A stretch of 64,000 nt of DNA from Pirellulales bacterium (GTDB taxonomy: Bacteria > Planctomycetota > Planctomycetia > Pirellulales > PALSA-1355), in assembly GCA_963733035.1 (NCBI GenBank), contig CAVTBU010000009.1, forward strand, positions 160,001 to 224,000, read 5' to 3'. The position numbers were made by a program, and so were the translations under genes. Under the pieces are notes generated by a model, which was given only the letters and a program-made list of their open reading frames with translations, did not search any database and was not told the DNA's origin. Below are positions 43,099 through 64,000 of this stretch, piece by piece. How positions within the stretch are numbered: position 1 is the stretch's first letter; each line of letters opens with the position of its first letter.

Positions 43099-43279
43099 TT
43101 CTATATGACCGCCTGGCCAATTCCTGGCCAGTATAGCAAAATCGCACACAACTTGCGTCGCTTCACCACGGTGCCAACAGGACCACCACCTGCAATGAGA
43201 AACGATCCTCGGCCAGTGCTGCCGAGGATCGTTTTGTGGGGTGAATCGCTTTTTTTGAGCGGACTTGTGCCCGAGCCGA

Positions 43280-46200
43280 CTACGTCAGAGCGTCGCCGAG
43301 AAGTTCGAGCGCCGTTTCGTCGACTTCGTTCGCATCGCCAGTTGAAAACAGCTCGTCGAGACCATCGGCGGCATACGACCAATCGGCCGCCAGGGCCCAG
43401 TCGACCTGGGCGGCGCCCAGCGGAGCGGCTTTCGCCAGGACTACGGCCGGAGCAGGTGACTCCGCGTCGGCGGTCACGCTTTTGGCCGGTACTGTCAGCG
43501 ACGCGGCCACGGCGTTTCGCAGGTCGTCGCTTGGTTTACTGGCCAGCGCGTCGCTTGTGCCTAACGGCCGCGCGAGCGGGGCGGGAGGGGGAGAAATCTG
43601 AATGCGCGGCAGGACGCCGGCATTGGTATGGACGATAAACCGATCGTCGAGCGAGCCGTTCCGGTTGATGTCCAAGTTGCTGGTAATCGGGAGGTTCCTG
43701 TATTGCGTCGCCGTACGCACCGCGATCTCGTCCGCCGCGTTGGTGACAAAATAATTCGCCGGCGTGCCTGCCAGCGTATCGCCAATCCGGTTGCCGAAGA
43801 AGAATTCGTCGGGGGACGAAAGGCCCGTGTGGGCGTCGGCCGCGACGATCACTTCGAGATAGGTGTTCTTGATCGCGCCGTCGGGCCAGACGATTTCCAC
43901 GCGGTCGGATCCGCCGTCTCCCTGGCCCGGCAGCACCACCACGGCCGATGGCGCGGGCGCCGCCGCCCAGGTATCGGGTGCGTTGTTGCTTCCCACGCGG
44001 AAGATGAAGTCGGCGGCCGTGATATCCGGATGCGAACCGGCGATGTCGACCATGATGCCGTTAATACCACGCGAGTAGCTGGTGACGTTTTGCGGCCCAG
44101 CCAGGCTGCCATTGGGGAGCAGGGCTTGTTTGTCGGTGGCGATGGCGAACACATCGAAGGGACCAACGCCGGAAATGTTACCGTTGAAGGTCGAGTTGTC
44201 GTAGAAAACGTGCCGGCCGGCGATGACGGTCTGAAAGGTGGCACCAGATTCAAACGCCCCGATGTCCACATGCCGTCCAACGACGCGACTGTACCCCGCG
44301 CCTCGTTGATCGAAGGGCGTCGGTGGATCGGTTGCGTTGGGATCGAACGCCGGATCGCCGGCGTTGATGGCCGGGCTGTCGTCGACAAGCTTGTGCGTCT
44401 GCGTCGGCCCGCCGTTGTCGGCCAGGTTGGTGTCGAGAATTGCGTGGACATCCAGTGCGTGCCCGCTCCCATCGCCGACTATGTTGCCTCTTGTGCCGTA
44501 CACTAAACCGCCGGCTGTTTCCGGATCGGCAATCAGATTGAACGAACTCGCCAGATCGATCTGCCCGCCATCGAGTTGGATATCGCTGGCGGTTGCTGGC
44601 ATTGCATTTGTGAGTCGATTGCCGGCAATGATCGTGCTAGTTAGCATGGTCGTTCCACCCGCCAGGTCGAGCCCACCTCCGGTACCGAACCCATCTCCGT
44701 CCGCATCCGCTTGGTTAACCGCAACCGTGGTATTTGACAGAGTTAGCTGGGTAGTGGCGCCGCCGGTATAAACCCCGCCGCCCGAGGCACCCGCCGCATT
44801 GCCTGACAGAGTGCTGCTGGCCAAGGTCGCAATGGAGCCAGCCGCGTTATAGAGGCCGCCTCCCTCGACGGCCGCCTGGTTTACCGACAAGGTGCTGTCG
44901 GCGACAGTGACCACTGCCTGGTTGGCATTGAAGATCGCGCCGCCGCTGGCCGATGCCGTATTCTCACTGAGCGTGCTACTCGTGATTTGACACTGCGCCG
45001 CCTGCAGGTTGTTGACACCGCCGCCGTATCCGTTGGTGGCCGCGTTCCCGGAAATCGTACTCAACGCAATCTGCAGCACACTGTTGTTACCCATGTTAAA
45101 AACTCCGCCTCCGCTGGCGGCGGAATTGCCGGTGAGCGTGCTACGCTCAAGCACCGTGACGCTACCGTGGGAAACTCCACCGTTATTGATTCCGCCGCCC
45201 GAATTGTTGGCCGTGTTGCCCGAGAGGATGGTGTCGGTCACGGCGACAGCTGCTATTGCTATTTGGGGAAAAACCGAATAGTTGTCGATGGCGCCGCCAC
45301 GGTTTGTCGCGGTGTTGTCTGACAGGGTACTGGCGTTTATCGTTGTCGTTCCCGCACTGATGGAGATTGCGCCACCGTTTTCCGCGACGTTGGAGGAGAT
45401 GTTGCTAGAGTTGATCGTCAATTCTCCACTGCCAGCGGCGTAGATTCCCCCACCGGACGCTGCGGAGTTGCCCGTGATCGTGCAATCGTTGATGGTCCCC
45501 CCGCCGATTTGGATCGCGCCGCCGTAACTTTCCGCAGAGTTGTTTGAAAGAGTGACGCGTGAGAACGATGCCAGACTAGCGTAAACTGCTCCGCCAAAGC
45601 GGCTCGAATTGCCCGTAAGCGTGCTGTCACTCATGGATAAGAGGCTGTATCGTGTCCCTGTGTCATCGTAGATGGCCCCGCCCTCGTCTTGTGCTGCGTT
45701 GTCGGAAAACGTGGTCTCCTCAATCGTTAGCTCCGGCAAAAGGTGTGGCGCGATTAGGCTGATCGCGCCACCAATGATTGCGCGGTTTCCCACAAATACG
45801 CAATTGTTAACCCTCACTCGGGCATCCACATCGGCTAGTGCGCCACCGCGACCGCTCCAACCGCCAGTAAGTGTGAGCCCCTCGACGTCGAGGGACGCCC
45901 CGCTGTGTGCATCGAGAATCCGGTCGCCGTAGCCGAGGCTGGGGTCAACCAGGCCGGAAGCGTCGATCGTCGTCGTGTCGGCGCCCGCGCCGACGATCGT
46001 GACGCTGCCGCTACTGAGAATGTCCAAGTCGCCCGTGAGCGCGGCATCTTCATTCGCCCCTTGGATTGTCAAGGTATAGGTGCCGGCGGGGAGCACGATC
46101 TGGTAGTCATTCGGCGAGGCGTTTGCTTCGAGCACGGCTTCGCGCAAGGAGACGAGGCCGTCGTTCGGATCGATGACGTCCTGGGTGGTGGTCACTTCGA

Positions 46201-46348
46201 CCACCGTGGCCGTCAGCAGGTGACGCTGTTCGAGGGCTTCGAGTCTGAGGCTGGAAAACCGGCTGGAAGCGAAATTGCGGGAACGTGCAAAACGCTGGGG
46301 GCGCGCAACAGCGCATGGTCCGCGCGGGACCGTTCGATAGGTCGACAT
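43280..46348 (-). CDS. Large secreted beta-helix protein (CSLREA / Pmp-like GGAI repeats / choice-of-anchor Q-like)
   Basis: LEALEQRHLL, VSLREAV, many NxAxxGGAI repeats, LADNGGPTQT...DQRG...DIGAFE. Confidence 0.85.
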   Translation of the reverse strand: MSTYRTVPRGPCAVARPQRFARSRNFASSRFSSLRLEALEQRHLLTATVVEVTTTQDVIDPNDGLVSLREAVLEANASPNDYQIVLPAGTYTLTIQGANEDAALTGDLDILSSGSVTIVGAGADTTTIDASGLVDPSLGYGDRILDAHSGASLDVEGLTLTGGWSGRGGALADVDARVRVNNCVFVGNRAIIGGAISLIAPHLLPELTIEETTFSDNAAQDEGGAIYDDTGTRYSLLSMSDSTLTGNSSRFGGAVYASLASFSRVTLSNNSAESYGGAIQIGGGTINDCTITGNSAASGGGIYAAGSGELTINSSNISSNVAENGGAISISAGTTTINASTLSDNTATNRGGAIDNYSVFPQIAIAAVAVTDTILSGNTANNSGGGINNGGVSHGSVTVLERSTLTGNSAASGGGVFNMGNNSVLQIALSTISGNAATNGYGGGVNNLQAAQCQITSSTLSENTASASGGAIFNANQAVVTVADSTLSVNQAAVEGGGLYNAAGSIATLASSTLSGNAAGASGGGVYTGGATTQLTLSNTTVAVNQADADGDGFGTGGGLDLAGGTTMLTSTIIAGNRLTNAMPATASDIQLDGGQIDLASSFNLIADPETAGGLVYGTRGNIVGDGSGHALDVHAILDTNLADNGGPTQTHKLVDDSPAINAGDPAFDPNATDPPTPFDQRGAGYSRVVGRHVDIGAFESGATFQTVIAGRHVFYDNSTFNGNISGVGPFDVFAIATDKQALLPNGSLAGPQNVTSYSRGINGIMVDIAGSHPDITAADFIFRVGSNNAPDTWAAAPAPSAVVVLPGQGDGGSDRVEIVWPDGAIKNTYLEVIVAADAHTGLSSPDEFFFGNRIGDTLAGTPANYFVTNAADEIAVRTATQYRNLPITSNLDINRNGSLDDRFIVHTNAGVLPRIQISPPPAPLARPLGTSDALASKPSDDLRNAVAASLTVPAKSVTADAESPAPAVVLAKAAPLGAAQVDWALAADWSYAADGLDELFSTGDANEVDETALELLGDALT

Positions 46349-46614
46349 GGCTCTTCCTCTGTCCGTAGGAACGCGATAACGAAAATAAGACGCACTTCGC
46401 TCGGCCGGACTCTCGCGTTGCCCTCGCGAGCCTCTTCGTCCTGCCAACTGTCGACCCGATTTTCGTCCGCGTGGGCCACGCGAAAAATAAACGATCCAAA
46501 AGGAGGCGGCCCACACGCCACCCGTCAGAGTAAAGGAACCCGCTAGCTTTGTCCAGAGAATTCCGGGCAAAAAGTTCGGTGAGCCAAGCGATAGTGAACG
46601 CGACGATCAGACGC

Positions 46615-47036
46615 CTACGTCCACAGGTTCCGGTCGAGCGTGCGGTAGTTGATCGCCTCGCTGATGTGCTCGGGACGGATCGACTCGCTGGACTCGATGT
46701 CGGCGATGGTACGGGCGAGGCGCAGGATTTTGTCGTGCGCCCGGGCCGAAAGGCCGAGTTCGGTCATCGTGGCGCGAAGGAGATTCATACAGGGGTCGTC
46801 CAAGGGGCAGAACTGCCGAATCTGCCGGTGCGTCATGCGGCCGTTGTGACGGGTGCCAGTTCCGGCGAAGCGAGCTTGTTGCACTTCGCGGGCGGCTTCC
46901 ACGACCTCGCGCATCTGGGCGCTGGAGGTGCCCGGCGTTTTCGCCGAAAGTTCGCGGAAGGGAACGGCCGGCACTTCGATTTGGATGTCGATGCGGTCGA
47001 GCAGGGGGCCGGAAATCTTGGCCATGTAGCGTTCGA
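46615..47036 (-). pseudogene. comM: 3' fragment of a YifB/ComM Mg-chelatase-like ATPase, interrupted by the island
   Basis: VERYMAKISGPLLDRIDI...LGLSARAHDKILRLARTIAD...HISEAINYR; an in-frame TAA and unrelated sequence lie immediately upstream. Confidence 0.92.
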
Positions 47037-47041
47037 CTTAC
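47009..47041 (-). repeat. att-like site 1 (comM/island junction), 33 bp
   Basis: ccggaaatcttggccatgtagcgttcgacttac is the exact reverse complement of 52701..52733. Confidence 0.9.
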
Positions 47042-47231
47042 GGAACCTTAGAAAACCTTACGCCGGAAATGATCGAAGCTTTAGGGGTCATTGATCGGGT
47101 GTTCGACGGCTCGGCTATCCCCCAGGAGAAGCCACCCAGCCCCATGCCTAAGGCAATCTAACCGTTTCCGCCGCATTCGGGGCCACGGAGGGCGCGGGTG
47201 CACCACCTACGCAACAGGGAGATTGACGACG

Positions 47232-48014
47232 ATGTGTCTAGTTGAATCAATCGACCGGGCAATTGAGTTTGTCCGTGAACATGAGCTGCTAATGACGGAG
47301 GACGATGTGGATGAGCTAATACGGATCGCGGGCAGGGTCGTCGAGTTGGCTTTCCGCAGCGGCCTTCATTATGTTCTGCCGGGCATCGACATGCGTTCGC
47401 TGGTTGAATATCCCAGCGTGTCGGAGCCTCCCGTTGTATTGTCCGCCCTCAACGTGCCGGGCGATTGGAGTCGTGATGTTCTTAACCTGGAGGGTGAAAC
47501 ACTTGAACGTGCGTTTCTGCCGTGCGTGCCGGACCGTTGGTACGAAGCAATGATGATTCTACGATCTCTGGCCTGCCGTGACGCTCCTGCGGAGGAGCCG
47601 AACCAGCCCCAACCCAAGAAGCCCAAGGCAAAGGGCATGGGCCGAGAGGAGGTATTCAAGCGACTGGTGGAGCTGTGGCAGCAGGGAGAGCCGTTCACCA
47701 CTTGTGAGGAAATGGCTGAGCGGTTTGGTTGTTCTGATACCACCGTCCACCGAGCAATCCAGCGCAGTGAGAAGCTAAAGGCTTGGGCTGCGAAAGGGCC
47801 GAAGCGTACCCAACGGCTCGATGACGTAGTGCTAGACCGGACGGCTCAGAGCCGGGAGCCCGCACCGGACGATGACGCCCAATTGCGAGAATTGATTGAA
47901 CAGGCCGAACCGTCTTTGCGAGCATTCTTACACACAGTGCCACCCGAGAAACTGCGGCAGATGTCGGCCGATGATTTGAAGCAGCTAGTAGTCAATCCTG
48001 AGTGCAGAGCCTAG
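47232..48014 (+). CDS. Hypothetical protein with C-terminal HTH (putative regulator)
   Basis: TCEEMAERFGCSDTTVHRAI HTH pattern; GGAGA RBS. Confidence 0.65.
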   Translation: MCLVESIDRAIEFVREHELLMTEDDVDELIRIAGRVVELAFRSGLHYVLPGIDMRSLVEYPSVSEPPVVLSALNVPGDWSRDVLNLEGETLERAFLPCVPDRWYEAMMILRSLACRDAPAEEPNQPQPKKPKAKGMGREEVFKRLVELWQQGEPFTTCEEMAERFGCSDTTVHRAIQRSEKLKAWAAKGPKRTQRLDDVVLDRTAQSREPAPDDDAQLRELIEQAEPSLRAFLHTVPPEKLRQMSADDLKQLVVNPECRA

Positions 48015-48021
48015 GCCCAGC

Positions 48022-48085
48022 AGAAACGTTTCTCAGGCATTTCTCCGCAAAAACACGGCATTTCTAGCAAAAACCGGAAACGTTT
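48022..48085. promoter_or_regulatory. Putative operator cluster
   Basis: Palindrome agaaacgtttct (48022-33), aaacgttt (48078-85), and a tandem ggcatttct..gcaaaaac pair between them. Confidence 0.5.
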
Positions 48086-48133
48086 ACCACCTATAGAGGC
48101 CCGCGATTTTGGGCTGGAAAGGATTGGTGAACG

Positions 48134-48355
48134 ATGAACGACGGTACTGCTCCCCGGCTGCGTACGCCGGGCATTATCGCTGTGGAGTTAAAGGCTCCAC
48201 TCTCCCGAGTGCTCTACGTCTTACGCACTCGCCCCCACATTCGTCCGGCTGCCTACGCTGGCACGATCCGCCTCTACCGCGAAGACGCTGTGGCGATGGT
48301 CCGCCATGAGCTCAACGCGATTGACTCTAGAAAGGGGGGCCGAAGCGATGCCTAA
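48134..48355 (+). CDS. Small DNA-binding protein (excisionase/AlpA-like)
   Basis: 73 aa, TPGIIAVELKAPLSRVLYVL...GTIRLY winged-HTH pattern; overlaps the helicase start. Confidence 0.6.
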   Translation: MNDGTAPRLRTPGIIAVELKAPLSRVLYVLRTRPHIRPAAYAGTIRLYREDAVAMVRHELNAIDSRKGGRSDA

Positions 48356-49943
48356 GCGTGACGACTGCAGGAGGGAAGACCCTATTGCGAAGCGGCCCGA
48401 GTTCAAAAAACGCCTCAAAGAAGCTGAACTGGCATACCAGGTGCGTGACAAGAGGAGCATAGGTGAAGAGCTTACGCCAGAGGAAGAAGACATCTACCTG
48501 TTGGACGTTGCTCGACGTACGGAGCAAGCCCTATCCAAGAGAGATCCAAACGCCAAGTCACCGGCTCGTGCACCACTCCTCACGAGGCGGACGAAACACG
48601 ACTCAACCGATGAGCAAAAACTAGATCGGCTCCGACGTGAATGTGCGGAGTTTAACGGACCACCGACCCTTGGCCCGCACGGTGACCTGCGCACGATGGC
48701 CCAGGTGTTGGCTTTGCTTCAACATGCCACGCCATTGCGTGACGCGTTCCTGGAGGGAGTTGGTATTCCACCGTCCGCTCTCTCAGTCCGTGTTTGTGAC
48801 CGACTATCCCACGGGATTTTGGAGGATCTTGACCGCACGGAGGCGTCAGGAATCTGGGATATACCCTGGGAGAAGCTAGAGATTGATCGCCAGGAACGTC
48901 GTCCACGCCAAGGCATCAACACCCGTCGATTGTCGGACGTTTTGGCCCATGAAGTCGAATGGCAGTGGCCAGGCGTGACCGCCCTAGGAAAGTTGACCCT
49001 GTTCAGCGGCAATCCAGGCGTGGGTAAGACCTGGCTGGCGTTGGATATCATAGCCCGACTTACAACCGGTCGCCCTTTTCCGCTCCAGGCGAATCCGCCC
49101 AACGTTGACCGTAAATTTCCAAAGGGTGAATTACTTGTCGGCGGGTCAATCCGGCGCAATGCGTTGTTCATAAGTGCGGAAGACGCAGACGAAGATACCG
49201 TCAAGCCACGAATCGAGCTACTTGGTGGCGATTCGACGCGGATTCACACGTTGGACTTCATTTTTGAGAACCGCAATAGAAGAACCCTCTCGCTCGCGGA
49301 CCATATCAACTATTTAGACAAGTGGCTCTTTTCTGAGCCGATGGTTGAACTCGTGGTGATTGACCCGCTAACCGCGTTCCTGGGGAAAACAGACAGTCAC
49401 AAGAACGCGGACGTGCGAGCCGTCTTGGAGCCGTTATCGAAAGTGGCGGAAAAACGACGCGTAGCCATCATCGGCGTCAACCATCTCACCAAGGGAACGG
49501 AAGGATCAGCCGTACATCGCTCGATGGGCTCGATTGGCTTTATGGCTGCTGCCCGAGTCGCATGGCAAGTCACTGCCGATCCTGATGAGCCAGACCGTAG
49601 CCTAATGCTGCCCGTCAAGGTCAACATCGGGAAGACCCCACGGGGCTTAGCGTTTCGGCTCAGCGAAACGACCGGCATCGAGTGGGAACAGGAAAGCATT
49701 GATCTGACCGCTGACGAAGCCCTCAACGGACCACGCGAGAGCAAGCTTGACGACGCTAAGGACTTCTTGCGCAACCTGCTGCGAGAGGGGCCAATGCCTG
49801 CGACGGCGGTGGAGGACGCAGCCGCGAAGGCAAGAATCTTCGGATCGACACTCAAGACCGCCAAACGGCAACTCGGCATCAAGTCCGAAAAGAGCCCGGC
49901 ACCGAACGGCGGTTGGGAGTGGCGGCTACCGGAGCGTCGGTAA
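48348..49943 (+). CDS. AAA_25 / RepA-type replicative helicase
   Basis: EWQWPG..ALGKLTLFSGNPGVGKT (Walker A), SAED, VVIDP (Walker B), HLTK, GSIGF, KVNIG. Confidence 0.85.
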   Translation: MPKRDDCRREDPIAKRPEFKKRLKEAELAYQVRDKRSIGEELTPEEEDIYLLDVARRTEQALSKRDPNAKSPARAPLLTRRTKHDSTDEQKLDRLRRECAEFNGPPTLGPHGDLRTMAQVLALLQHATPLRDAFLEGVGIPPSALSVRVCDRLSHGILEDLDRTEASGIWDIPWEKLEIDRQERRPRQGINTRRLSDVLAHEVEWQWPGVTALGKLTLFSGNPGVGKTWLALDIIARLTTGRPFPLQANPPNVDRKFPKGELLVGGSIRRNALFISAEDADEDTVKPRIELLGGDSTRIHTLDFIFENRNRRTLSLADHINYLDKWLFSEPMVELVVIDPLTAFLGKTDSHKNADVRAVLEPLSKVAEKRRVAIIGVNHLTKGTEGSAVHRSMGSIGFMAAARVAWQVTADPDEPDRSLMLPVKVNIGKTPRGLAFRLSETTGIEWEQESIDLTADEALNGPRESKLDDAKDFLRNLLREGPMPATAVEDAAAKARIFGSTLKTAKRQLGIKSEKSPAPNGGWEWRLPERR

Positions 49944-49959
49944 TGCTATCCCGCGACCC

Positions 49960-50114
49960 CTTCACCCCCTTCGACTCCTTCGACAAATCTCCCACAAAAT
50001 TTGGGGGTAATCGAAGAAGGTGGTTTCACCCCCTTCGACTCCTTCAACTCACCAATTTTTGAAGGGGGTGAAGAAGGTGAAGGGGACGAAGGGGGTGAAG
50101 AAGACGAAGAAAGT
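49960..50114. repeat. Convergent 9-bp iteron array (putative replication origin)
   Basis: CTTC at 9-bp spacing (49960/69/78; 50024 variant/33/42) facing six GAAG-headed 9-mers (50061/70/79/88/97/106), with A/T-rich spacers. Confidence 0.75.
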
Positions 50115-50226
50115 TACCCCCATCGCACACCCGGACTGACACCCTTGTTGCCTTCCCCCAGGAAGCAGTCGCTAGACGACGCTTGTGAAGGTTGCGAAGC
50201 AAACTGACCAACGGAGAAACACCGCG

Positions 50227-50445
50227 ATGACTGAACGACTCGCTAGGTACGAAGAGTTGCTGAAACGGGCTCGCCTAAATGTCCTGCTGCTACGGCGGGA
50301 GATTCTGCGAGTGGAGCGGGCGATGGGCAAAGGACTGCCCCCGCTCGACATAGAGCCTTGGCGTGTAGAGGTTTTGGACATGCGACGGATTGAGAAAGTG
50401 ATTCTGGGCCTAATCGAGTTGGAGAAAAACCGCACGCAGACTTGA
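50227..50445 (+). CDS. Small hypothetical protein
   Basis: 72 codons after a GGAGA RBS; helical and charged. Confidence 0.55.
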   Translation: MTERLARYEELLKRARLNVLLLRREILRVERAMGKGLPPLDIEPWRVEVLDMRRIEKVILGLIELEKNRTQT

Positions 50446-50533
50446 CTTCCTGAATGGGGACATACGATTGTTATTAGCGTATAACCCACTTGGGTGGTTA
50501 GATATCCCCTCATTCATAGGAGAGACTAGCGAG

Positions 50534-51139
50534 ATGGCTATAGACTATTCAAAGTTGATTGGGAAGCGTTCAAAGTTGATCCCCATCGTCCCAACTTCGG
50601 ACCTGTACTTAGCGAACCTGGCAAGAGACTGCGCCGACGGGCACCGCTTCGCCAGAATCTTTAGGGATACATGGCGTCAGATTCCATTGGGGGATCGGCG
50701 GCGAATGGTGAAGCATTGGCACACCGATGAAAGAATGGATTCTGGCTGGTCCCACCCGCGTATATCGCGGAGGATGGAGCGGGAAAGATTTCCCATCTCG
50801 CGTTCTGATTACATTGCGAGTATCCAGCTAATTGCGGGCTGGAATAAAGAATATATCTACCCACACTATCTACCGGACGACGCCGAACATTGCGGTGCGT
50901 TTGTCACTGTCGCCGCAATGGGTCATAAGTTATGGTTCCACGCGCCATCGGTTGCACGGATGCCGGACAATGTTGTGGCGAACTTGATAGCCAAGGGGCT
51001 GGCTCATGTGTATCAGTGGGCGACAGAGCCGGAGCTGTTTGACGATCCAGATGACCCAGGCAACACGGAGTACCTTGAAGGGGACGCCAACCAGAAAGTT
51101 GAGAGTTGGGGCTTTGAACTGTACTCGATTGAGGAATAG
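50534..51139 (+). CDS. Hypothetical protein with degenerate zincin-like motif
   Basis: LIAKGLAHVY...EGDAN..VESWGF; AGGAG RBS. Confidence 0.55.
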   Translation: MAIDYSKLIGKRSKLIPIVPTSDLYLANLARDCADGHRFARIFRDTWRQIPLGDRRRMVKHWHTDERMDSGWSHPRISRRMERERFPISRSDYIASIQLIAGWNKEYIYPHYLPDDAEHCGAFVTVAAMGHKLWFHAPSVARMPDNVVANLIAKGLAHVYQWATEPELFDDPDDPGNTEYLEGDANQKVESWGFELYSIEE

Positions 51140-51165
51140 CTGCACTCCCGAGCTGGATGAATCGA

Positions 51166-51206
51166 CCATCTACAGAATCCAACAACCCACTACGCCTACC
51201 CCTAGC
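51166..51206 (+). repeat. 41-bp direct repeat, copy 1
   Basis: ccatctacagaatccaacaacccactacgcctacccctagc, identical to 58873..58913. Confidence 0.95.
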
Positions 51207-51261
51207 ACTCACGGCTGGCGAATCGCTTCGCTTTATCGTGTTGCAGTCAATGAAGTGCCTG

Positions 51262-52449
51262 TCAGTCTGCATCGCCAAACGCGAGCAGCTCACCGCCTTT
51301 GCTTAGAAACAGCAGTTTCCCATTGGTCATCAAACCTTCGATTCGCTCGCTATCGGAAGCACCGATCTTCCATTTCAATTCGCCGTTGGCTGCGTCTAGC
51401 CCGTAGAGCTGGCCGTACAAGGTGGCAACATATACCAACCCGCCACCGAGAAGAGGCGGATCATAAATCGGCGCACCATGACCTGGAACATAATCGCATT
51501 TGAATTTCCAGATCATCTTGCCAGTTTCTGCGTTGAGTCGATAGACGCTCCCGTTGAGGGATCCAAAAAATACAGCGTCGCCTTGCACGGCGGCAGCGGC
51601 TTCCACCTCGAAGCCGCAATGGAAATCCCATTTAACCAGGCCAGTTTCCCTGTCAAGGCAATACAAACGCCTATCCTTTGAACCGATATACACATACTTT
51701 TCAGTGACAACAGGATTGCCGTAAATCCAACCCTTGGTCTGAAAGGACCATTTTACCTGCGCCGTCTCGCAATTAATGGCAACGATTCGCGACTGATCAA
51801 AGATAGGCTGAAACAAGGTCTTTCCATCGGTGGCCGGCATCCTGGGCCTGGCTCCATCAGCGCCAATTCGGCCTCGCCTAGCATCGAAACCGGGCGGCGA
51901 CGGTGGTGCGTCCTTCAGCAAGTCGACAGTCCACTTGCAAACGCCAGACTTTGCATCAAATGCATAGACTAAGCCGTCTTCCGCCATGAAAACCAACAAA
52001 TCGCCGATCATCACCGGCACGAAACCTTGTGAGCCCGTCTCCCGTGTCCAAACCACGTTGCCGTTGGAGGTGTTAATCGCGACCACGTATTTCTCCGTCA
52101 AAAAGTACGCAACGTCGGCCATGACCAAAGATAATTTCAGTGGCGCTGCGTACGCTGGGCAGTTTGCATACCGTAGCAATGTTCCGTCAGAAGCTCGGCA
52201 TGAGCTCAGCTGCTGGCGATCCACCGAATAAAGGAGGTCGCCAGCAGGAATCACGTTCGTTCCATGCTGTCTCCAGACAACCTTTGGTTCGTGTTCCAAT
52301 TTCAGTCTCGAATCGCAATTCGTTCTGGCTTGGTCCACTTGCAAAATCGCATCCGCGCCATAAAGTAGCGCCCTCGCATCGAGAGTAAATGACAAGGCCA
52401 TGGCAAGAGCCACACTTGTGTAACGTGCGGGCCGCTTAGTGTTCAGCAT
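51262..52449 (-). CDS. PQQ-binding-like (BamB-type) beta-propeller protein
   Basis: Repeated LYxLDxxTGxxxW blades; signal-like N-terminus. Confidence 0.85.
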   Translation of the reverse strand: MLNTKRPARYTSVALAMALSFTLDARALLYGADAILQVDQARTNCDSRLKLEHEPKVVWRQHGTNVIPAGDLLYSVDRQQLSSCRASDGTLLRYANCPAYAAPLKLSLVMADVAYFLTEKYVVAINTSNGNVVWTRETGSQGFVPVMIGDLLVFMAEDGLVYAFDAKSGVCKWTVDLLKDAPPSPPGFDARRGRIGADGARPRMPATDGKTLFQPIFDQSRIVAINCETAQVKWSFQTKGWIYGNPVVTEKYVYIGSKDRRLYCLDRETGLVKWDFHCGFEVEAAAAVQGDAVFFGSLNGSVYRLNAETGKMIWKFKCDYVPGHGAPIYDPPLLGGGLVYVATLYGQLYGLDAANGELKWKIGASDSERIEGLMTNGKLLFLSKGGELLAFGDAD

Positions 52450-52643
52450 GACGATTTTCCCCAAGGTGATTAACGAGCCAAGCGAAGAGAGCTCAGCGAC
52501 AAAAGATCCTGGCAAAGATCACTATAGCGAAGGTGCGCCGAGCGGTAAGTGGGCTGCCTACCCTTGACCGCCAAGCTGCTCCCGAGCGGCAACACCACGG
52601 AGATCAGAAACAGCATTCCGCGGTCTTGCAAATCTCGGGACTC

Positions 52644-52668
52644 ACAACCCACTACGCCCACCTCAATC
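52644..52668 (+). repeat. Degenerate partial copy of the 41-bp repeat
   Basis: acaacccactacgcccacctcaatc vs acaacccactacgcctacccctagc: 15-bp exact core, 21/25 identical. Confidence 0.7.
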
Positions 52669-52700
52669 CAGCTCCTCTCGCACGTTAGTTATAGGGCTCA

Positions 52701-52733
52701 GTAAGTCGAACGCTACATGGCCAAGATTTCCGG
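52701..52733 (+). repeat. att-like site 2 (inverted copy of the comM junction)
   Basis: gtaagtcgaacgctacatggccaagatttccgg; contains the TAG of the recombinase on the minus strand. Confidence 0.9.
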
Positions 52734-54299
52734 GGCGTTGGTGACAGGTTCCTGGTTTCGCATCCAGACGATGCCGCGCTCCAGTCGGTACTTGGACCGC
52801 TTGCCCCAGGGTCGCTTATCCGTGAAGATGTCCACGCGCGAGATTGACCCGCGGAAGAATTGCCGCAGTAGATGTGGATCGGCTTTCGTGGCAGCCTCCC
52901 TGAAGCGTCCAAACCACTCTAGAGCAGCTTCGACCCTCCTGTCTATGTCATCGCCCTTCGTGCGTGAATTGGACGCACAGGACGCCAGACGGGCTTCTGC
53001 AGCCACACGTTGTCGACGCAATCCTCTGATCTGCTCTTGTACGTCGTCAAGCAGATCGGCGTCGACTTCCACCAGACGTTGCTTGGCCTTGGCCAGCTTC
53101 GCCTCGATGGCATCAAGTTCACGACGCAGTGCCTGCGGCTCGGGTTCCCGTTTCAGTTCCTTCAGTTGGCGTCTCATCGAGGATGCCAACTGCGCCAGGG
53201 TCTCGGGGTTGTAGTACCGTTCCTGCAGGCCATCCAGCACGCCGGCAACGATTTCATTCTGGCGTAGGGTGTTGCGGTCGCAGTACGTCTTCCCGTGCTG
53301 GCGGTATCCGTAGCAGGTGTAGTGGTGCTTGCCGTTCGACAAATCGCCGATCATCTTGTGCCCACACTTGCCACAGCGCAGCACTCCCGAGAGTACGAAA
53401 CCACCGCCGCTTGGGTGCGGTGTGGAGCAGTTCCTGCGCTCGGCCAACTGCTGCTGCACCCGGTCGAACGTATCCCGGTCGATAATCGCCTCATGGTGAT
53501 CCTCGAAGACGATCCAGTCGGCCGCGTTGTTCCGTTGCTCGGGGCGGCCCTTCCGCTTGTATTTCGACATGCAGCGCATGTTCCAGATGTAGTCTCCCAC
53601 GTAGACCCGGTTGCGGAGCATTCCAGCGATTCCGTTCGCTGTCCAGCCCTTCCCCTTGGGTGATGGTCGGCCTGAGTTGTTCAGCTCGTCGGCCAGCCCG
53701 CGCAGGCTCTTGGCCGCTAGGTACTCGGTGAAGAGCCAACGAACGAGCGCGACATCCTCTGTTGGCCCCAGCAAGAGTCGCTTATTGACCGCGACGTACC
53801 CCAACGCCGGCTTGCCGGATGCCCACAGGCCCTGCTCTGCGAGGCTAGTCATGCCGCGCGTGACATTCCTCGACAGATCGGTCAGGTATTGGTTCTTAGC
53901 CTCCTGCTGAATGCCGTACAGTACTCGACCAGCGAAGTCCCCCCAATCGATGAACCCTTGGGCGACGGTCGCGAGATGTACGCCAGCCCTGCGCAGTGGA
54001 AAGATCCAGTACCCAGCCTCGAGGGAATCAAATCGCCCGAACCGATCAATATCCCAACACAGGATCGCTTGGAACTTCCGGTGTTGTCCGTCTCTGACCA
54101 TCGCTTGGAATTCACGCCGCTTGTCGGTCGCATCGCCGCTGATTCCCTCGTCGATGTATTCACGAACGATGTGATAGCCGTTGGCCTTGGCGTACTTCTC
54201 GACTGCCGTCCGTTGGTCAGGAATCGAGGTTTCCTGTCGGTCGGTGCTCATGCGGTAGTAGGCCACCGCAGGGATGTAGTTTTCATTCGTCGCAATCAC
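52713..54299 (-). CDS. Large serine recombinase (integrase) 1
   Basis: YYRMST, DEGISG, DRFGR, recombinase domain (GY, LRNRVYVG, HEAII), zinc ribbon CGKCG/YTC/YC, coiled coil. Confidence 0.95.
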   Translation of the reverse strand: MIATNENYIPAVAYYRMSTDRQETSIPDQRTAVEKYAKANGYHIVREYIDEGISGDATDKRREFQAMVRDGQHRKFQAILCWDIDRFGRFDSLEAGYWIFPLRRAGVHLATVAQGFIDWGDFAGRVLYGIQQEAKNQYLTDLSRNVTRGMTSLAEQGLWASGKPALGYVAVNKRLLLGPTEDVALVRWLFTEYLAAKSLRGLADELNNSGRPSPKGKGWTANGIAGMLRNRVYVGDYIWNMRCMSKYKRKGRPEQRNNAADWIVFEDHHEAIIDRDTFDRVQQQLAERRNCSTPHPSGGGFVLSGVLRCGKCGHKMIGDLSNGKHHYTCYGYRQHGKTYCDRNTLRQNEIVAGVLDGLQERYYNPETLAQLASSMRRQLKELKREPEPQALRRELDAIEAKLAKAKQRLVEVDADLLDDVQEQIRGLRRQRVAAEARLASCASNSRTKGDDIDRRVEAALEWFGRFREAATKADPHLLRQFFRGSISRVDIFTDKRPWGKRSKYRLERGIVWMRNQEPVTNAPEILAM

Positions 54300-54381
54300 A
54301 ATCCCGAGCCTCCATGGTTGAGATCAACAGTTGACATTGAGAAAACCAGATCGGCGACAATTCGTCAAGGAAACGCCACCG

Positions 54382-55047
54382 CTAGACCTCTCCCAATCTG
54401 TGGATTGAGTAATCCTCGACCTTATCCCAAAGGATGGTCACTACGCCGTTTTGCGTCATCACCGCAATGCCCGGATCGTTGTAGAGCACGTACCCGGTCG
54501 GCCCCGCGTCGTTATGACCGATGATAACCTTCCACTGCTGGGGAATCGGAACTTTGATGCCTTCAATGCGATGGAGTTCAATAAACCGTCCACTGTTTCG
54601 CAATTCGATGCACGCCTCAGAGAATTCCTCGAGTTGCGATACAGCCGACTTGGAGAGTTGCTGGTTCACAACTGTTTCTACTAGTCCAAGCGTTAATGCG
54701 CGACTCACGACGGACGTGAACGATCCAATAAAGAAGAGCCCGCTGCTGAAACCCTTGAACTTGGCTTCGATTTGCCGCTGGATGCGTTCAGCGGCACGTA
54801 CAAAGCCAACATCGAACATGAGGATTGCAGAACAGACGTGCTCACGACCGGAAACCATTCGTATTCTGGCCACGATGGGGTCCGGTGGGACGGGCTCAGC
54901 GAGTGGTGGCTCCATGCTACCGCCGACCATTTCGTCGGTAAGGCGGACAGGCTGTTTGCACGACGGACATGACACGACCCGGCCGACTAGTCTCTGGTCA
55001 TACTTAATGCGTCGGCCACACATGGGACAATTCGTTGTGGCACTCAT
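54382..55047 (-). CDS. Hypothetical protein with N-terminal zinc ribbon
   Basis: CPMC...CPSC, Pro-rich linker, unknown C-terminal domain. Confidence 0.65.
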   Translation of the reverse strand: MSATTNCPMCGRRIKYDQRLVGRVVSCPSCKQPVRLTDEMVGGSMEPPLAEPVPPDPIVARIRMVSGREHVCSAILMFDVGFVRAAERIQRQIEAKFKGFSSGLFFIGSFTSVVSRALTLGLVETVVNQQLSKSAVSQLEEFSEACIELRNSGRFIELHRIEGIKVPIPQQWKVIIGHNDAGPTGYVLYNDPGIAVMTQNGVVTILWDKVEDYSIHRLGEV

Positions 55048-55123
55048 GCACGGCAGCCCTCGCGGCTTGGATTTGGAAATATATCCCCGCCCCCAGTTCG
55101 CCCAGGGGCGGGGTCAGGGACGC

Positions 55124-56908: not shown

Positions 56909-56912
56909 TCCA

Positions 56913-58154: not shown

Positions 58155-58866
58155 TCAGCTGGCGTCACCGCTCGACATGATGGCGAACTGCTCATCGCCC
58201 TGTGCCACGCCGAAGTCGTGGTAGCCACGCCATTGCATGCCCAGGGTGTTGAAGTCGGTCTGGCTGGACTCGATGGTCGGAACCGCGCGGCCGTTCAGGA
58301 GGGCGACCACGATTGCAGAACCAATTGAAGGTTCGGACATCAGGAACCACACAGTGCTGCTCTGGTTGCTGATTCCGCTGCCGTCCGGCTTCTTGATGCC
58401 GGTCACGTCCAGGTACTTGCTCTTCACGGGACGGTAGCGGCCTTGGTAGATGTTCTCGGTGCCGATCTGCGATCCGTTCGCGTCGACCGACAGTAGGGTC
58501 GTCTGTCGATACAGATTCGTCGCGGTGACGATCTGGGCAGTGCCCGTGAGCAGGATGGCTGGATCGGCCATAATCGGCTTTCCTCCTGCACCGGTGAACT
58601 TGCCGAAGGCGATTTCCCCGGCCTCCAGGCCCCCGATCGACAGCACATCATCGATCAGGTTGTTGTTGCCGACCGAGAAGAAACTGCCCGTGTTCGACAG
58701 TAGGGTGTCGTACACCTCCGATTCGATGGCCCAAACAGCACCATCAGCCAGACCGTTGAGCACCTGACGGAAGGCGTCCAGGTCGTCGTTGATGATGTGC
58801 CGGCGGTCGAGCGAAAGCATCCGCCCGCGGGTCTCCGCCTGCACGGTACGCTTCGAGTCCGACAGC
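58155..58866 (-). pseudogene. C-terminal fragment of a Mu-like (gpT / ClpP-fused type) major capsid protein
   Basis: ETRGRMLSLDRRHIINDDLDAF, VALLNGRAVPTIE, DFNTLGMQWRGYHDFGV; the frame is closed by TAG next to the 41-bp repeat. Confidence 0.75.
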
Positions 58867-58872: not shown

Positions 58873-58913
58873 CCATCTACAGAATCCAACAACCCACTAC
58901 GCCTACCCCTAGC
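58873..58913 (+). repeat. 41-bp direct repeat, copy 2
   Basis: Identical to 51166..51206; ~200 bp upstream of the resolvase. Confidence 0.95.
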
Positions 58914-59039: not shown

Positions 59040-59070
59040 TTTACTACGTGTGTGGTAGAGCGTAGACTAA
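59040..59070 (+). repeat. Dyad-containing repeat upstream of the resolvase
   Basis: tttactacgtgtgtggtagagcgtagactaa, 24/31 identical to 59770..59800; CTAC-N7-GTAG. Confidence 0.65.
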
Positions 59071-59114
59071 GGGTAACGGTACGTATGTTCACTACGATAC
59101 AGGAGGGGCGAACC

Positions 59115-59714
59115 ATGAAGCATATTGCGATCTACTTGCGGGTATCCACGACCGGACAGGACACGAAAAGCCAGCTACCCGACCTGGAACGATGGGCTGC
59201 GGCTCAATCCGATCCGGTCAAGTTCTACAGCGACAAGGCGAGCGGTAAGACGATGGACCGGCCGGGCTGGGCGAAGCTAGAGGCAGCGATTCGACAGGGC
59301 CGCGTTAAGGCTGTCGTAGTGTGGAGGATTGATCGACTCGGCCGCACCGCCAAAGGGCTTACTGCGCTGTTCGACGAACTACGCGAGCGGAAGATCAACC
59401 TAGTCTCGCTACGCGATGGCCTGGACCTATCGACCCCGGCCGGGCGGTTGATGGCGAACGTGCTTGCGTCTGTGGCTCAGTATGAAACCGAAGTGCGGGG
59501 CGAGCGAGTAGCAGCCGGGCAAGCCAAAGCACGGTCGCAGGGCAAGCGTTGGGGCGGCTCGCAACCGGGAGTGCGGAAGAAGGTCACCGATACGCAGCTC
59601 AAGGCTATCCACTCGATGCGTGCGAACGGCGAGCGTATCACCCATATCGCCACCGCTCTGGGGCTCTCTCGGCCCACGATCTATGCCGTCCTACGCGAGC
59701 CCGCAGCAGCGTAA
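59115..59714 (+). CDS. Small serine resolvase/invertase with C-terminal HTH
   Basis: YLRVST, DKASG..RPG, RIDRLGR, STPAGRL, IATALGLSRPTIY; AGGAGG RBS. Confidence 0.95.
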   Translation: MKHIAIYLRVSTTGQDTKSQLPDLERWAAAQSDPVKFYSDKASGKTMDRPGWAKLEAAIRQGRVKAVVVWRIDRLGRTAKGLTALFDELRERKINLVSLRDGLDLSTPAGRLMANVLASVAQYETEVRGERVAAGQAKARSQGKRWGGSQPGVRKKVTDTQLKAIHSMRANGERITHIATALGLSRPTIYAVLREPAAA

Positions 59715-59824: not shown

Positions 59825-60220
59825 ATGCCCAGAGTCAGCAGGGGCACCCGAACCAACCAAAGCCATAAGGGCCGAGTCTTGCCTCCCAAGTACACAGCCG
59901 GGTTTCTCACAACGCTGGACGGCCGCACTGAGTTGGCCCGTGGTCTACGCGAGCGGTTTGACTCGATTGTGGCCGATCTGGGCGGACCCGGAGAGCTATC
60001 GCAAATCAAGGCATCGCTGGTTGAACGGTTTGTCTGGCTGGAAGCATCGTTGATGAGCATCGAAGCAGCGATGGCCGAGACGACCGACCCGAAGCAGTAT
60101 GCCGACCTAGTTGCCCGCTGGACTCAGGCTTGCAACACGCTGCTAGGCATCGGTAAGTCGCTCGGCATTGACCGCAAGCTTGGCTCGGCGCCTTGGCTGG
60201 CGGAGGCTAAGCAAACATGA
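59825..60220 (+). CDS. Hypothetical protein, candidate terminase small subunit
   Basis: 131-aa helical protein (LDGRT..AR, DLGG..LS, LGIDR) with an ATGA overlap to the large subunit. Confidence 0.55.
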   Translation: MPRVSRGTRTNQSHKGRVLPPKYTAGFLTTLDGRTELARGLRERFDSIVADLGGPGELSQIKASLVERFVWLEASLMSIEAAMAETTDPKQYADLVARWTQACNTLLGIGKSLGIDRKLGSAPWLAEAKQT

Positions 60221-61845
60221 TCGACGCCCAACAGTACCAGCTCTATGCCTCCAATCCGGCTGCCTTCCGCGATGATCTCAACGTAGAGGTAAGCGGCTCG
60301 GTCTGTCGCTTCGGTGATATCCAGGACGACTGGCAGCGTCGTGACTTTGAATCCCTAGACCCGGCTTGGCTGCGCTGTACAGGCAGGGACCACGGCGACA
60401 ACGCAATACGGACACGCGGCTACCTGGAACGCGGACGCGGACACTCCAAGACAACCGACCTAGCGATGATGGCCATCTGGGCCTTGGCGTTCGCCACTCG
60501 CTCACTGCGGGGCTACTGCTTCGCTGCCGACAAGGATCAAGCCGCGTTGCTCCACGATGCGATGCGTACGCTCGTGCGCTTGAATCCCTGGCTGGCTGAG
60601 ATCCTAGAAGTTCAGCGGGAACAGGTTGTAAACGTCGCACAAGACCATCGGGGCAACGGGAGCCGATTAACGATCTTCACCAGTGACGTCGGATCGTCCT
60701 ACGGTATCCTCCCGGACTTCATCATTGCCGACGAACTAACGCACTGGGCTGGTGATGGCTCGCTCTGGTACTCGATCATCAGCTCTGCCGCCAAGCAGAC
60801 GAATTGCGTGCTGGTCGTTATCTCCAACGCGGGTTTCGTCGACTCATGGCAGTGGAACGTCCGGGAAGCGGCTCGCAACGATCCTAGCTGGATCTTCTCT
60901 CGGCTCGATGGGCCAAGGGCTTCTTGGCTGACCAAAGATCGACTAGCCGAACAACGGCGCATGCTTCCGCCCATAGCGTATGACCGGCTGTGGGGAAACC
61001 GTTGGAGTTCAGGCGGTGGCGATGCCTTAACGGAGGAGGATATCCAGGCCGCATTCGACAACAACCTGCGGCCGATGACCGGTCGTGAATCAGATTGGGT
61101 ATTCGTAGCGGGACTGGATTTAGGGCTCAAGCGTGACGGCTCGGCCGTGGTTGTACTGGCGGCACCGGTCAACGGTCGCAACGGCGGTAGGATTCGCCTA
61201 GCTCATCATCAACTCTGGCGTCCTCAGGATTCAGGCGGCAAGGTCAAGCTGACGGAAATCGAAGACCATATCAAAAAGTTGGATCGGCGGTTTAACCTGC
61301 GATGCGTTGGCTTCGATCCATGGCAAGCCGAACACATGGCCCAACGCCTGGAAGTCCATTCCCGGCACCGTAGCCGCAGCTCTCGCTTTCGCTCGATAGA
61401 TGGGCCCTGGATGCGGGAGGTACCGCCCACAGGCGGCAACCTTCGCACAATCGCCAACCTAACCATCGAGACGTTCACGGATCGTCGGTTAATGCTCTTC
61501 GACTGTCCGCCGTTGGAGCGTGACCTACGCAAGCTGCGAGCGGAAGAGAAGAGCTACGGCGTTCGCCTTACCAGCCCACGCGATGAACATGGCCACGGCG
61601 ATAGCTTCACAGCCCTTGCCAATGCCTTGCTGCTGGCCCATGAGATAGCCGGTGAAAAGGTAATCACGCTCCAGGCTTGGGGCAGCGGGATGCCGTACGA
61701 CGATGGCGATGAGGAAGACGACCGGCACGCGATTGACGACTACCTGGAAGAAATGGAGTACCTGGAGAGCTTGCCTGATGGACCAGAGCGAGTGATTCGA
61801 GGCATCGAACACTGGGAGAACAACACGAATGACCCACTACTTTGA
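60217..61845 (+). CDS. Terminase large subunit-like protein
   Basis: ERGRGHSKT Walker A, FAADKDQA, FIIADEL Walker B, ISNAG, GLDLGLKRD nuclease motif, FDPWQA, HGD. Confidence 0.82.
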   Translation: MIDAQQYQLYASNPAAFRDDLNVEVSGSVCRFGDIQDDWQRRDFESLDPAWLRCTGRDHGDNAIRTRGYLERGRGHSKTTDLAMMAIWALAFATRSLRGYCFAADKDQAALLHDAMRTLVRLNPWLAEILEVQREQVVNVAQDHRGNGSRLTIFTSDVGSSYGILPDFIIADELTHWAGDGSLWYSIISSAAKQTNCVLVVISNAGFVDSWQWNVREAARNDPSWIFSRLDGPRASWLTKDRLAEQRRMLPPIAYDRLWGNRWSSGGGDALTEEDIQAAFDNNLRPMTGRESDWVFVAGLDLGLKRDGSAVVVLAAPVNGRNGGRIRLAHHQLWRPQDSGGKVKLTEIEDHIKKLDRRFNLRCVGFDPWQAEHMAQRLEVHSRHRSRSSRFRSIDGPWMREVPPTGGNLRTIANLTIETFTDRRLMLFDCPPLERDLRKLRAEEKSYGVRLTSPRDEHGHGDSFTALANALLLAHEIAGEKVITLQAWGSGMPYDDGDEEDDRHAIDDYLEEMEYLESLPDGPERVIRGIEHWENNTNDPLL

Positions 61846-62315: not shown

Positions 62316-63149
62316 ATGCTGACGCTTACCGTCAACCTGACCGCCGCAGCTCGCAGCGAATCAATCAACGGACGGCCCTACCTGGTCGCTCCAATGACGT
62401 TGATCGTGCCGGGAGTCTTGAACGGCAGCAGGGGCCCGTTGCTCTATCCGCCCGAAGAGATTGAACGGAGCGTAGCGGCCTGGAACGGTGTACCGCTCGT
62501 GTTGGGCCACCCTCGCAACAGCAATGGCGTTCCTATCTCGGCTCGCTCGCTGGAGATTCTGAACCGGATCGGCCTAGGTTTCGTCCAGGGAGCCCGCACG
62601 GAGAACGGCAAGCTGATGGCGGAAGGCTGGTTTGATGTAATCCGCATGAAAGAAGTCCATCCAGCGGCCCTTGCTCGACTTCAAGGCGGACTACCGCTTG
62701 AACTGAGTACGGGGCTCAACACCGACAACTATCGGGCCACGCCTGGATCAACCTACAACGGCCGAGCCTACCATGCCGTGGCTCGCAACTACGAACCCGA
62801 CCACCTAGCAATCCTGCCGGAAGACAAAGGAGCCTGTTCCCTTAACGACGGATGTGGAGTCCTAAACATGCGATATGAAGATTTCAACCAATACCCCCAA
62901 CAGCTTGTTCACAACGGAGTGGTCTACCAGCCGGTAGGTCCAGTAGCCAACGACCTGAATGAAGAGCTGCTGGAAGAGCCGACGATCAACTGGCGGGAGT
63001 GGGCCGGCTGGGAAGATCCCAAGCCCGCAGCTCAGCCTTGCTCGAATCGTGCCGCAACAGAGAACGTCCAAGCTGATCCGAACGACATCAACGCCGAGAA
63101 GCTTGAAGAGGCGGATATCAACTGGGCCGAGTGGGCGAAAGGGAATTGA
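62316..63149 (+). CDS. DUF2213-type prohead protease-like protein
   Basis: PGVLNG, WNGVPLVLGHP, ELSTG, YNGRAY, PDHLAILP..KGACS..DGCG. Confidence 0.8.
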   Translation: MLTLTVNLTAAARSESINGRPYLVAPMTLIVPGVLNGSRGPLLYPPEEIERSVAAWNGVPLVLGHPRNSNGVPISARSLEILNRIGLGFVQGARTENGKLMAEGWFDVIRMKEVHPAALARLQGGLPLELSTGLNTDNYRATPGSTYNGRAYHAVARNYEPDHLAILPEDKGACSLNDGCGVLNMRYEDFNQYPQQLVHNGVVYQPVGPVANDLNEELLEEPTINWREWAGWEDPKPAAQPCSNRAATENVQADPNDINAEKLEEADINWAEWAKGN

Positions 63150-63520: not shown

Positions 63521-64000
63521 ATGTCCAAGAAGCTGATGCCGGCCGCAGGCTACCTTCGTAAGTCAACGGCTGGAGAAGGTAAGGAAGGTAAAGAGCGTCA
63601 AGAAAAGTCCATCCCTACTCAAAAGGCTGAGATTGAAAAGCTGGCCAAGGCAGAGGGCTACAAGATCGTTCGCTGGTACGCCGATCCCGGCATCAGCGGA
63701 TGGAAGAGGGGCGTCAAGCGTCCAGACTTTACCCGGATGATTGCCGAAGCGCAGCAGCTTCGGGATATCCAAGCCATCGTCTGCGACGACATCGACCGAT
63801 TTAGCCGTGCGGATATGGATGAGGTCCAAGCTGATGTGTTCGCTCTGAAACAGGCGGGAGTTCAGTACATCATTACCGCAGCCCAAGGCGTCTATGACCT
63901 GGGCAGCCACGGCACTGACTTCGGTAAGGTTGTAAAGTTCATGGCCGACGTGTGGGGCTCGAATCAATTCAGTCGCAAACTGTCTCGCCGGATAGCTCGG
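63521..64000 (+). CDS. Large serine recombinase 2 (5' part; runs off the right edge)
   Basis: Hand translation MSKKLMPAAGYLRKST...QEKSIPTQ...YADPGISG...KRPDF...DDIDRFSR...FSRKLSRRI; missing from the ORF track. Confidence 0.9.
   Translation, partial: MSKKLMPAAGYLRKSTAGEGKEGKERQEKSIPTQKAEIEKLAKAEGYKIVRWYADPGISGWKRGVKRPDFTRMIAEAQQLRDIQAIVCDDIDRFSRADMDEVQADVFALKQAGVQYIITAAQGVYDLGSHGTDFGKVVKFMADVWGSNQFSRKLSRRIAR

Follow-up and report, generated by a model that had tools for sequence, protein, structure and literature searches.

We describe a probable relic of two mobile elements, inverted inside an 18.2-kb island that splits the gene comM in a Pirellulales bacterium (assembly GCA_963733035.1). 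The analysed stretch, hereafter the window, comprises 64,000 nt (contig CAVTBU010000009.1, positions 160,001 to 224,000, forward strand). A 33-bp sequence at the left island-comM junction (site 1) recurs as an exact inverted copy inside the island (site 2; Table 1), where it adjoins the gene of a large serine recombinase (LSR1), while a second such enzyme, LSR2, adjoins the other part of comM at the far island end. We propose that site 2 is probably a relic double junction rather than an attP attachment (att) site, of attR type for the LSR2 family and of attL type for LSR1. The inner copy is thus best read as a leftover scrap of comM caught between the ends of two different mobile elements, and neither as a working attachment site nor as a proven DNA switch. 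From one edge to the other it consists of an LSR2-family P-type half-site (P3), a central AA, 29 bp of comM and the junction with LSR1.

The exact reverse complementarity of 47009-47041 (CCGGAAATCTTGGCCATGTAGCGTTCGACTTAC) and 52701-52733, reported in an earlier note on this DNA, was borne out by direct sequence comparison, and the pair is real and far beyond chance, the expectation for an exact 33-mer inverted pair in 64 kb being ~3e-11. In a repeat search of 40000-60000 it is the longest inverted repeat, extending to 45 nt at 91% when its flanks are included, with next-ranked pairs of at most 33 nt at 76%, and self-BLAST of 46000-67000 returned solely this pair and one 41-bp direct repeat. 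The 29-nt comM part is present in exactly two copies in the 6.65-Mb assembly, one per strand, against 0 copies of a reversed control pattern. The note's labelling of the sequence as a comM junction was also correct, 46615-47037 on the minus strand encoding the last 140 ComM residues, starting VERYMAKISGPLLDRIDI, as was the 12/16 similarity that it saw between the inner flanks of the two copies (8/12 by eye beyond the shared TTAC). The 33 bp correspond to the interval between two recombinase crossover points in comM, together with the central AA and 2 nt of a P arm. In site 1, the crossover of the LSR1 family is marked by CCGG at 47009-47012 and that of LSR2 by TT at 47038-47039 (AA in comM sense), and an uninterrupted LSR1-family attB is still contained in the site, which joins with 47040-47063 to make up the live attR-type junction of the island.

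The 3' fragment of comM is 84-87% identical to ComM of same-genus genomes and matches PF01078 over model positions 177-205. The 5' part (C9:225278-, window-equivalent 65283-66670, minus strand) is found 1.3 kb beyond the window end, directly past the LSR2 stop, and ends ...CHCTLPQ, so that the gene is split between Q and V codons by 18.2 kb. By comparison, comM is uninterrupted across both crossover positions in 3/3 same-genus genomes and in 11 of the 12 aligned loci of relatives (13 loci searched), the exception being G016. The whole LSR2 protein matches Pfam Resolvase, Recombinase and Zn_ribbon_recom, all above cut-offs, and its gene reads towards the adjoining comM 5' part, with a stop codon that by eye spans the junction. 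Beyond the window, a P2' arm (65257-65280) is followed by a central TT (65281-65282) and then by the comM 5' part. P2' and its counterpart P2, the 24 nt just inside each island end, are related inverted copies, and an attP rebuilt from them has a dyad of 13/22, which is reached by 20/2000 shuffles; the two island junctions have just AAG in common, and the central AA is deduced from symmetry. As P2 and P2' pair as a dyad-symmetric attP and the other half of comM abuts LSR2, we assign site 1 to LSR2, and 47040-65282 appears to be a unit integrated by this enzyme as one piece, with an attL-type junction at window-equivalent 65281. The earlier view of site 1 as an attR is thus retained as far as the type of the left junction is concerned, but its maker would be LSR2 and not the recombinase adjoining site 2.

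Relatives of LSR2 are found in 4/400 other genomes of the order, and 2 of the 4 lie in comM. In G107 (54% identity to LSR2) both junctions are located at the same point, between P-Q and I-E-R, with the recombinase adjoining the comM 5' part, and in G172 (50% identity) one junction is located there, placing the crossover of the family between the P-Q and V-E-R codons of comM. The V/I codon at which the comM part begins is common to site 2, site 1, G107 and G172, and the identity between the two 33-bp copies stops 2 nt past the AA where LSR2 crossed over at site 1. A half-site matrix derived from five aligned half-sites (P2 and P2' from the present genome, G000, two from G107 and one from G172) features a clear consensus, with P2 as its top match (26.8 bits as a training site, 19.7 in leave-one-out). 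Scored on this matrix of five other half-sites, P3 reaches 6.74 bits at the sole position predicted, a value attained at 84/127954 window positions (p ~7e-4), and matches the G107 P' arm at 12/14 core-proximal nt. The inner edge of site 2 (GT-AA) thus reads as an LSR2-family attR-type junction, and the inner flanks of the two sites are related because both are LSR2-family P-type half-sites, stemming from different elements. Translation upstream of P3 gives the arm-encoded tail alone, with no remnant of a recombinase gene. An extra half-site of this type, picked by eye at ~51228-51246 after the 41-bp repeat, was discarded as it is outside the top 15 matrix matches; no matrix match outside the trained sites exceeds the median shuffle maximum.

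At the outer edge, the last 6 codons of LSR1 and its stop (PEILAM-stop) are comM antisense and lie inside the repeat. LSR1 shares 31% identity with LSR2, and the 61 invariant columns of a 15-sequence family alignment are kept in it by definition; both recombinase genes look intact. Close relatives of LSR1 were not found, the nearest having 61-63% identity among 5.8 billion proteins and at most 35% in a search of genome contigs, and metagenome contigs contained 0 exact matches to 21 nt of the P3 arm. Across the same 400 genomes, relatives at E<=1e-70 are present in 12, and in 5/12 loci comM is no more than 1.5 kb from the recombinase gene. In three of them (G085, at 62% identity to LSR1, G354 and G350) comM is cut right after K-I-S-G and abutted in antisense by the recombinase 3' end, the side so abutted being the comM 5' side; by eye the stop of the G085 enzyme is in comM-derived bases, and the G326 enzyme continues, in the same strand, into G-P-L-M-D-R-I-D. 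The junctions in G085, G354 and G350 agree in codon and orientation with the outer edge of site 2, where comM identity ends between CCGG and GGCG. The two island junctions in G085, G354 and G350 have ~3-5 bp in common with each other, and the respective rebuilt attPs have dyads of 15/22, 14/22 and 13/22 (attained in 1, 3 and 24 of 2000 shuffles). From these comparisons, the outer edge of site 2 (CCGG) would be an attL-type junction of LSR1 with comM, and not half of an attP. More widely, a 648-aa LSR1 homologue (P0097) is fused in frame to the ComM C-terminus at ...G/GPLLDRIDI and two others (P0086 and P0089; 761 and 785 aa) have precomputed DprA domains, which suggests that two distinct transformation genes are targets of this family and that its recombinase open reading frame (ORF) can extend into the target.

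A search of the genome for near-identical partners of the P1' arm of LSR1 gave none at up to 3 mismatches, a more diverged partner being beyond its reach, and none was found at the same threshold for a second copy of the comM 3' start. With an attL-type site but no detectable attR, LSR1 should be unable to move by the usual rules and is probably stranded. Both recombinase ORFs end in target-derived bases (LSR2 stop 65279-65284, L007 2279-2284; LSR1 tail 52713-52733), so by eye the C-termini of LSR1 and LSR2 would differ between the excised and integrated states. We also considered homology between the inner flank of site 1 (47042-47100) and the LSR1 3' end, based on a common GGAACCT and a second CCGGAAAT at 47062-47069, and rejected it, since 428 and 192 of 2000 shuffles reach the score. 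That second CCGGAAAT is 53 bp into the island from the comM copy and adjoins the P2 arm.

These data support a model where comM is a target of two families of large serine recombinases with crossovers 29 bp apart, and where an LSR2-family island and an LSR1 island would once have resided at that distance in one comM gene, site 2 recording their co-occupancy. With att sites of serine integrases spanning 40-50 bp (10.1101/2025.05.02.651858), 29 bp is long enough to serve as a whole half-site for either family. The islet is the host's own comM allele, from which the two nearest genus members differ at 2/29 positions, and the relic would therefore have arisen either in the present lineage or in another that shares the allele; it is probably young, as LSR1 is intact. 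Once formed in a comM gene with this genome's allele, the relic would later have been carried, inverted, into the present island. Because P2 and P2' are a cognate pair, the 18.2 kb most likely entered an intact comM as one circle already holding the relic, in which case the orientation of the relic would be arbitrary. As to how the relic reached that circle, the route we favour, with somewhat less than even confidence, is import within a 7.7-kb block (51207-58872) by crossover at the 41-bp sequence.

The exact copies of this 41-bp repeat are located in the two strand-switch gaps of the island: outside the block, 10/10 ORFs taken as genes are on the plus strand, while inside it minus-strand ORFs prevail by 6 to 2 (all ORF calls and not validated genes). 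The last gene of the block is a truncated 229-aa capsid gene at its right edge. The motif occurs nowhere else in the 6.65-Mb genome outside the island, and it may represent a recombination scar, an operator or some other element.

The double-junction reading is carried by the identity of both edges of site 2, the crossover positions of the two families, the half-site character of P3 and the missing attP symmetry. Several points weigh against it. Both island types side by side in direct orientation are seen in 0/6 genomes that have either type at these two comM sites, so that the relic is the sole witness of co-occupancy. The P3 score is unremarkable in a blind scan (median shuffle maximum 12.5 bits) and owes its significance to the prefixed position. 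The island lacks a recombinase cognate to P3. Conservative site-specific recombination cannot capture flanking target DNA, and the captured comM thus obliges us to assume one or more other steps, by homologous or illegitimate recombination or by inversion in cis. Being direct, the 41-bp repeats could not themselves have inverted the block, and the search for an earlier state yielded no close relative either of the block or of LSR1 (nearest 61-63%).

An inversion in cis could have generated the same edges, although we regard it as unlikely. Provided that an LSR1 element was already present 29 bp away, LSR2 would have recombined an internal attP (P3 + P2') with an inverted comM attB on the same molecule, making site 2 and the right junction in one step and flipping 52.7-65.3 kb. 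A single canonical attP x attB reaction would thereby explain both the orientation and the adjacency of P3, AA, 29 bp and LSR1, and its predicted attR- and attL-type products in inverted orientation are site 2 and the 65281 junction as observed. P3 would, however, have to be an arm of LSR2 itself, and its pairing with P2' is poor (11/22, reached by 226/2000 shuffles) compared to the pairing of P2 with P2' given above (13/22, 20/2000). The cis inversion also leaves the second 29-bp copy at site 1 and the adjoining P2 arm unexplained, and the LSR1 attP before inversion would have to carry 33 bp of comM, which is not seen in relatives.

The earlier note had instead proposed, as one of two inferences, site 2 as an intact attP of LSR1, unrecombined and inverted, where the 33-bp identity would be attP/attB homology. 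The overlap of an att arm with the recombinase 3' end, which is found in the LSR1 family as at site 2, is the part of this claim that stands; LSR1 moreover looks intact, and a block entering as a circle via the 41-bp site would leave its own att unrecombined. Yet, when centred on CCGG, site 2 has a dyad of 9/22 that 1170/2000 shuffles reach, i.e. no symmetry, as opposed to the clear symmetry of the attPs of three relatives. Both arms of an attP should consist of element DNA around a short core, whereas site 2 has as one of its arms a 29-bp piece of host comM, carrying a host-specific allele, and the attP of relatives has ~3-5 bp in common with comM. Furthermore, comM identity extends precisely as far as the crossover of the other family, beyond which lies that family's half-site. 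We consequently hold an intact attP to be quite improbable.

It is similarly very doubtful that 47042-52700, in the earlier note's other inference an invertible or excisable unit, is an actively invertible module, or that the relic acts as a reversible, integrase-driven inversion switch of this 5.66-kb replication module under either recombinase. Three agents might flip the module: RecA over the 33-bp arms, LSR2 on attR x attR with the help of a directionality factor, or LSR1 on attL x attB, whose inner arms are identical. The P arm that faces comM would change as a result. The segment is indeed flanked by inverted repeats whose exact arms hold complete half-sites for both families, and both recombinase genes look intact. 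Both crossover points fall within the identical 33 bp and any inversion of 47042-52700 would thus leave both sites unchanged, so that all three routes would give the same product and be reversible. Such a switch would set whether the cognate P2 or the foreign P3 arm faces comM, and with it whether LSR2 excises the whole island or inverts 52.7-65.3 kb. Against this, attP x attB is the pair described for serine integrases, recombination of attL x attR requiring a directionality factor (PMC5499577; 10.1101/2025.05.02.651858); the site pairs in question are non-canonical substrates, neither attR x attR nor attL x attB being permitted in the account of PMC5499577. Inspection of the ORF map finds no gene that straddles either arm so as to change upon inversion: site 1 is not crossed by any ORF on its island side, and the tail of LSR1, being within the repeat, would be unaltered by a flip. 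A 33-bp arm is, in addition, generally a poor substrate for RecA. An assembly mis-join is scarcely credible as the source of the inverted arrangement, as the contig measures 344 kb in a 10-contig assembly, 33-bp repeats are generally too short to mislead most assemblers, and both edges of site 2 are coherent junctions matching independent genomes.

Under the double-junction reading, an odd inverted att copy is explained without a new mechanism, by what are ordinary serine-integrase junctions in a known hotspot gene. Less ordinary are the use of fixed comM codons 29 bp apart by different recombinase families in this bacterial order and the preserved double junction. The junctions resemble the hybrid attL/attR junctions of large serine recombinases in general (examples being phiC31, Bxb1 and Listeria A118/LI), with the same domains in LSR1 and LSR2, a split target gene, a 2-3-bp common core, a dyad-symmetric rebuilt attP and an att arm overlapping the recombinase 3' end. 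They differ in that one target stretch is bounded by two families and sits inverted within an island, and in being known here from sequence. Nested accretion likewise leaves internal hybrid att sites that record earlier integrations in a mosaic of modules, but in the classic case relic sites are direct, not inverted, and involve one integrase family. Serine-invertase switches such as Hin, Gin and Cin also have inverted repeats flanking a segment, and the island does encode a small serine recombinase; the arms here are, however, comM-derived hybrid integrase sites, and the invertase gene is 6.3 kb away, outside the segment.

In Acinetobacter, comM is interrupted by AbaR and many other elements, with reduced transformation (PMC11472951). 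The A. baumannii hotspot (AbaR/AbGRI) described there concerns the same gene, with varied elements within or adjoining the Mg-chelatase domain. AbaR/AbGRI islands, however, move by Tn7-like transposition, whereas here serine recombinases act at fixed codon positions, of which there are at least two and probably three. A limited search of an incomplete literature collection returned no papers on serine-recombinase islands in comM. Our findings add to the recurrent disabling of transformation genes by mobile elements, members of the LSR1 family being also fused to DprA domains, and reduced natural transformation would be the expected consequence of the comM split. They indicate that one gene can hold more than one island, that composite islands can keep scraps of their target gene, and that internal att-like copies can mislead boundary calls in island annotation, and they bear on the origin of mosaic structure in satellite-like islands. 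LSR1 and LSR2, whose natural attB sequences are defined, are ordinary candidates for orthogonal integrase tools.

Other comM loci show further arrangements. Two of them, G136 and G172, point to a probable third recombinase target position near the Walker A motif (...ITIAA(A/S)G / NHNLL). The comM 5' part in G136 (L071, 1200-1560) breaks off there, next to an LSR1-family gene, at a position different from the others in comM. In G172 (L090, 51-470 and 14046-14732) the comM 5' part ends at residue 237 and the 3' part starts V-E-R-Y, residues 238-394 being gone between the LSR2-type junction and a second junction; this locus is another composite in comM. In G016, of the same family (L039, G016:C16:1-1937), comM diverges from the consensus immediately before L-D-R-I-D, at a distance of 50 nt from the contig start, and this may be another island at the LSR1-type position.

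Table 1. Features of the split comM locus and its island, in window coordinates (strand: +, plus; -, minus;., none assigned).
Feature	Position	Strand	Description
comM 3' fragment	46615..47037	-	last 140 codons, from V-E-R-Y-M-A-K-I-S-G-P-L-L-D-R-I-D (translation)
Site 1	47009..47041	.	resident comM from LSR1-family crossover to LSR2 crossover, plus 2 nt (AC) of island arm
P2	47040..47063	-	LSR2 P-type half-site, left island end
307-aa protein	47091..48014	+	weak helix-turn-helix match: Pfam HTH_11 4.7e-5, below curated cut-off
73-aa small protein	48134..48355	+	candidate directionality factor of the earlier note; no Pfam or PHROG match
AAA_25 protein	48306..49943	+	DnaB-like replication helicase-primase type; Pfam AAA_25 3.8e-27; PHROG primase/helicase matches
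Repeat array	49952..50109	.	dense 9-bp-periodic direct and inverted repeats directly after the AAA_25 helicase gene
41-bp repeat, copy 1	51166..51206	+	exact direct repeat; left border of 7.7-kb block
PQQ-like protein	51262..52515	-	beta-propeller protein (cargo); Pfam PQQ_2 3.7e-36
41-bp motif, third copy	52628..52668	+	diverged: 63% over 41 nt; 3 mismatches over 22-nt core
P3	52679..52702	+	putative LSR2-family P-type half-site of another element; abuts central AA 52703-52704
Site 2	52701..52733	.	GT + AA + 29-bp comM islet 52705-52733 (comM sense on + strand)
LSR1	52713..54299	-	528-aa large serine recombinase; Pfam Resolvase, Recombinase and Zn_ribbon_recom
P1' arm of LSR1	~52734-52755		
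Capsid gene	58155..58844	-	5'-truncated, 229 aa; Phage_capsid_4 profile positions 74-250 of 262 alone
41-bp repeat, copy 2	58873..58913	+	exact direct repeat; right border of block
Small serine recombinase	59052..59714	+	invertase/resolvase type; Pfam Resolvase 2.6e-40 and HTH_7; PHROG 'DNA invertase' 6.3e-54
Large terminase	60217..61845	+	Pfam TerL_ATPase; PHROG terminase large subunit 3e-29
DUF2213 protein	62316..63149	+	head-maturation-protease-like; Pfam and PHROG
LSR2	63521..64000 in window; gene to window-equivalent 65284	+	587-aa large serine recombinase

In its gene content the island appears satellite-like, with a replication module, a terminase, a protease and a truncated capsid. The array that follows the helicase gene comprises repeat families D3, D4 and D8 and pairs I3, I6 and I13, of GAAGGGGGT / GAAGAAGGT types, and possibly represents the iterons of a replication origin. 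The truncated capsid matches C-terminal parts alone of PHROG head proteins, and its homologue in the G172 island is 397 aa long. The head-protease-like gene is 3.5 kb from the capsid gene and on the opposite strand, with no notable inverted repeats to explain the split. Given this rearranged packaging module, we take the island for a probable decayed satellite or prophage remnant.

Homologues of the 73-aa small protein are present in 27/401 genomes of the order, including two LSR1-type comM islands but mostly genomes where neither recombinase is found, and across this set the protein has no specific link to LSR1 or LSR2; comM is within 1.5 kb of its gene in 0/27 loci. The notion that it marks LSR1-type islands, and hence that 47042-51206 belongs with LSR1, was dropped, the protein not being diagnostic. 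Homologues of the C-terminal part of the 307-aa protein adjoin the small-protein gene in 3/27 loci. The ~300-aa proteins encoded by the G350 and G354 islands show no relationship to the 307-aa protein, with E = 2.1 and 1.1. We also considered the PQQ-like protein as a marker of an LSR2-family island end, but with just 2 homologues at E<=1e-60 in the 400 other genomes it is uninformative.

Direct repeats of 37 nt (76% identical; 59040-59076 and 59770-59806) bracket the small serine recombinase gene. Outside the island and upstream of comM, a 92-nt direct repeat (83% identical) is found at 42692-42783 and 43992-44083, with a spacing of 1300 nt; its region includes a 1096-aa minus-strand ORF (43280-46570), and it looks like the internal repeats of a large repetitive protein, unrelated to the site 2 relic.

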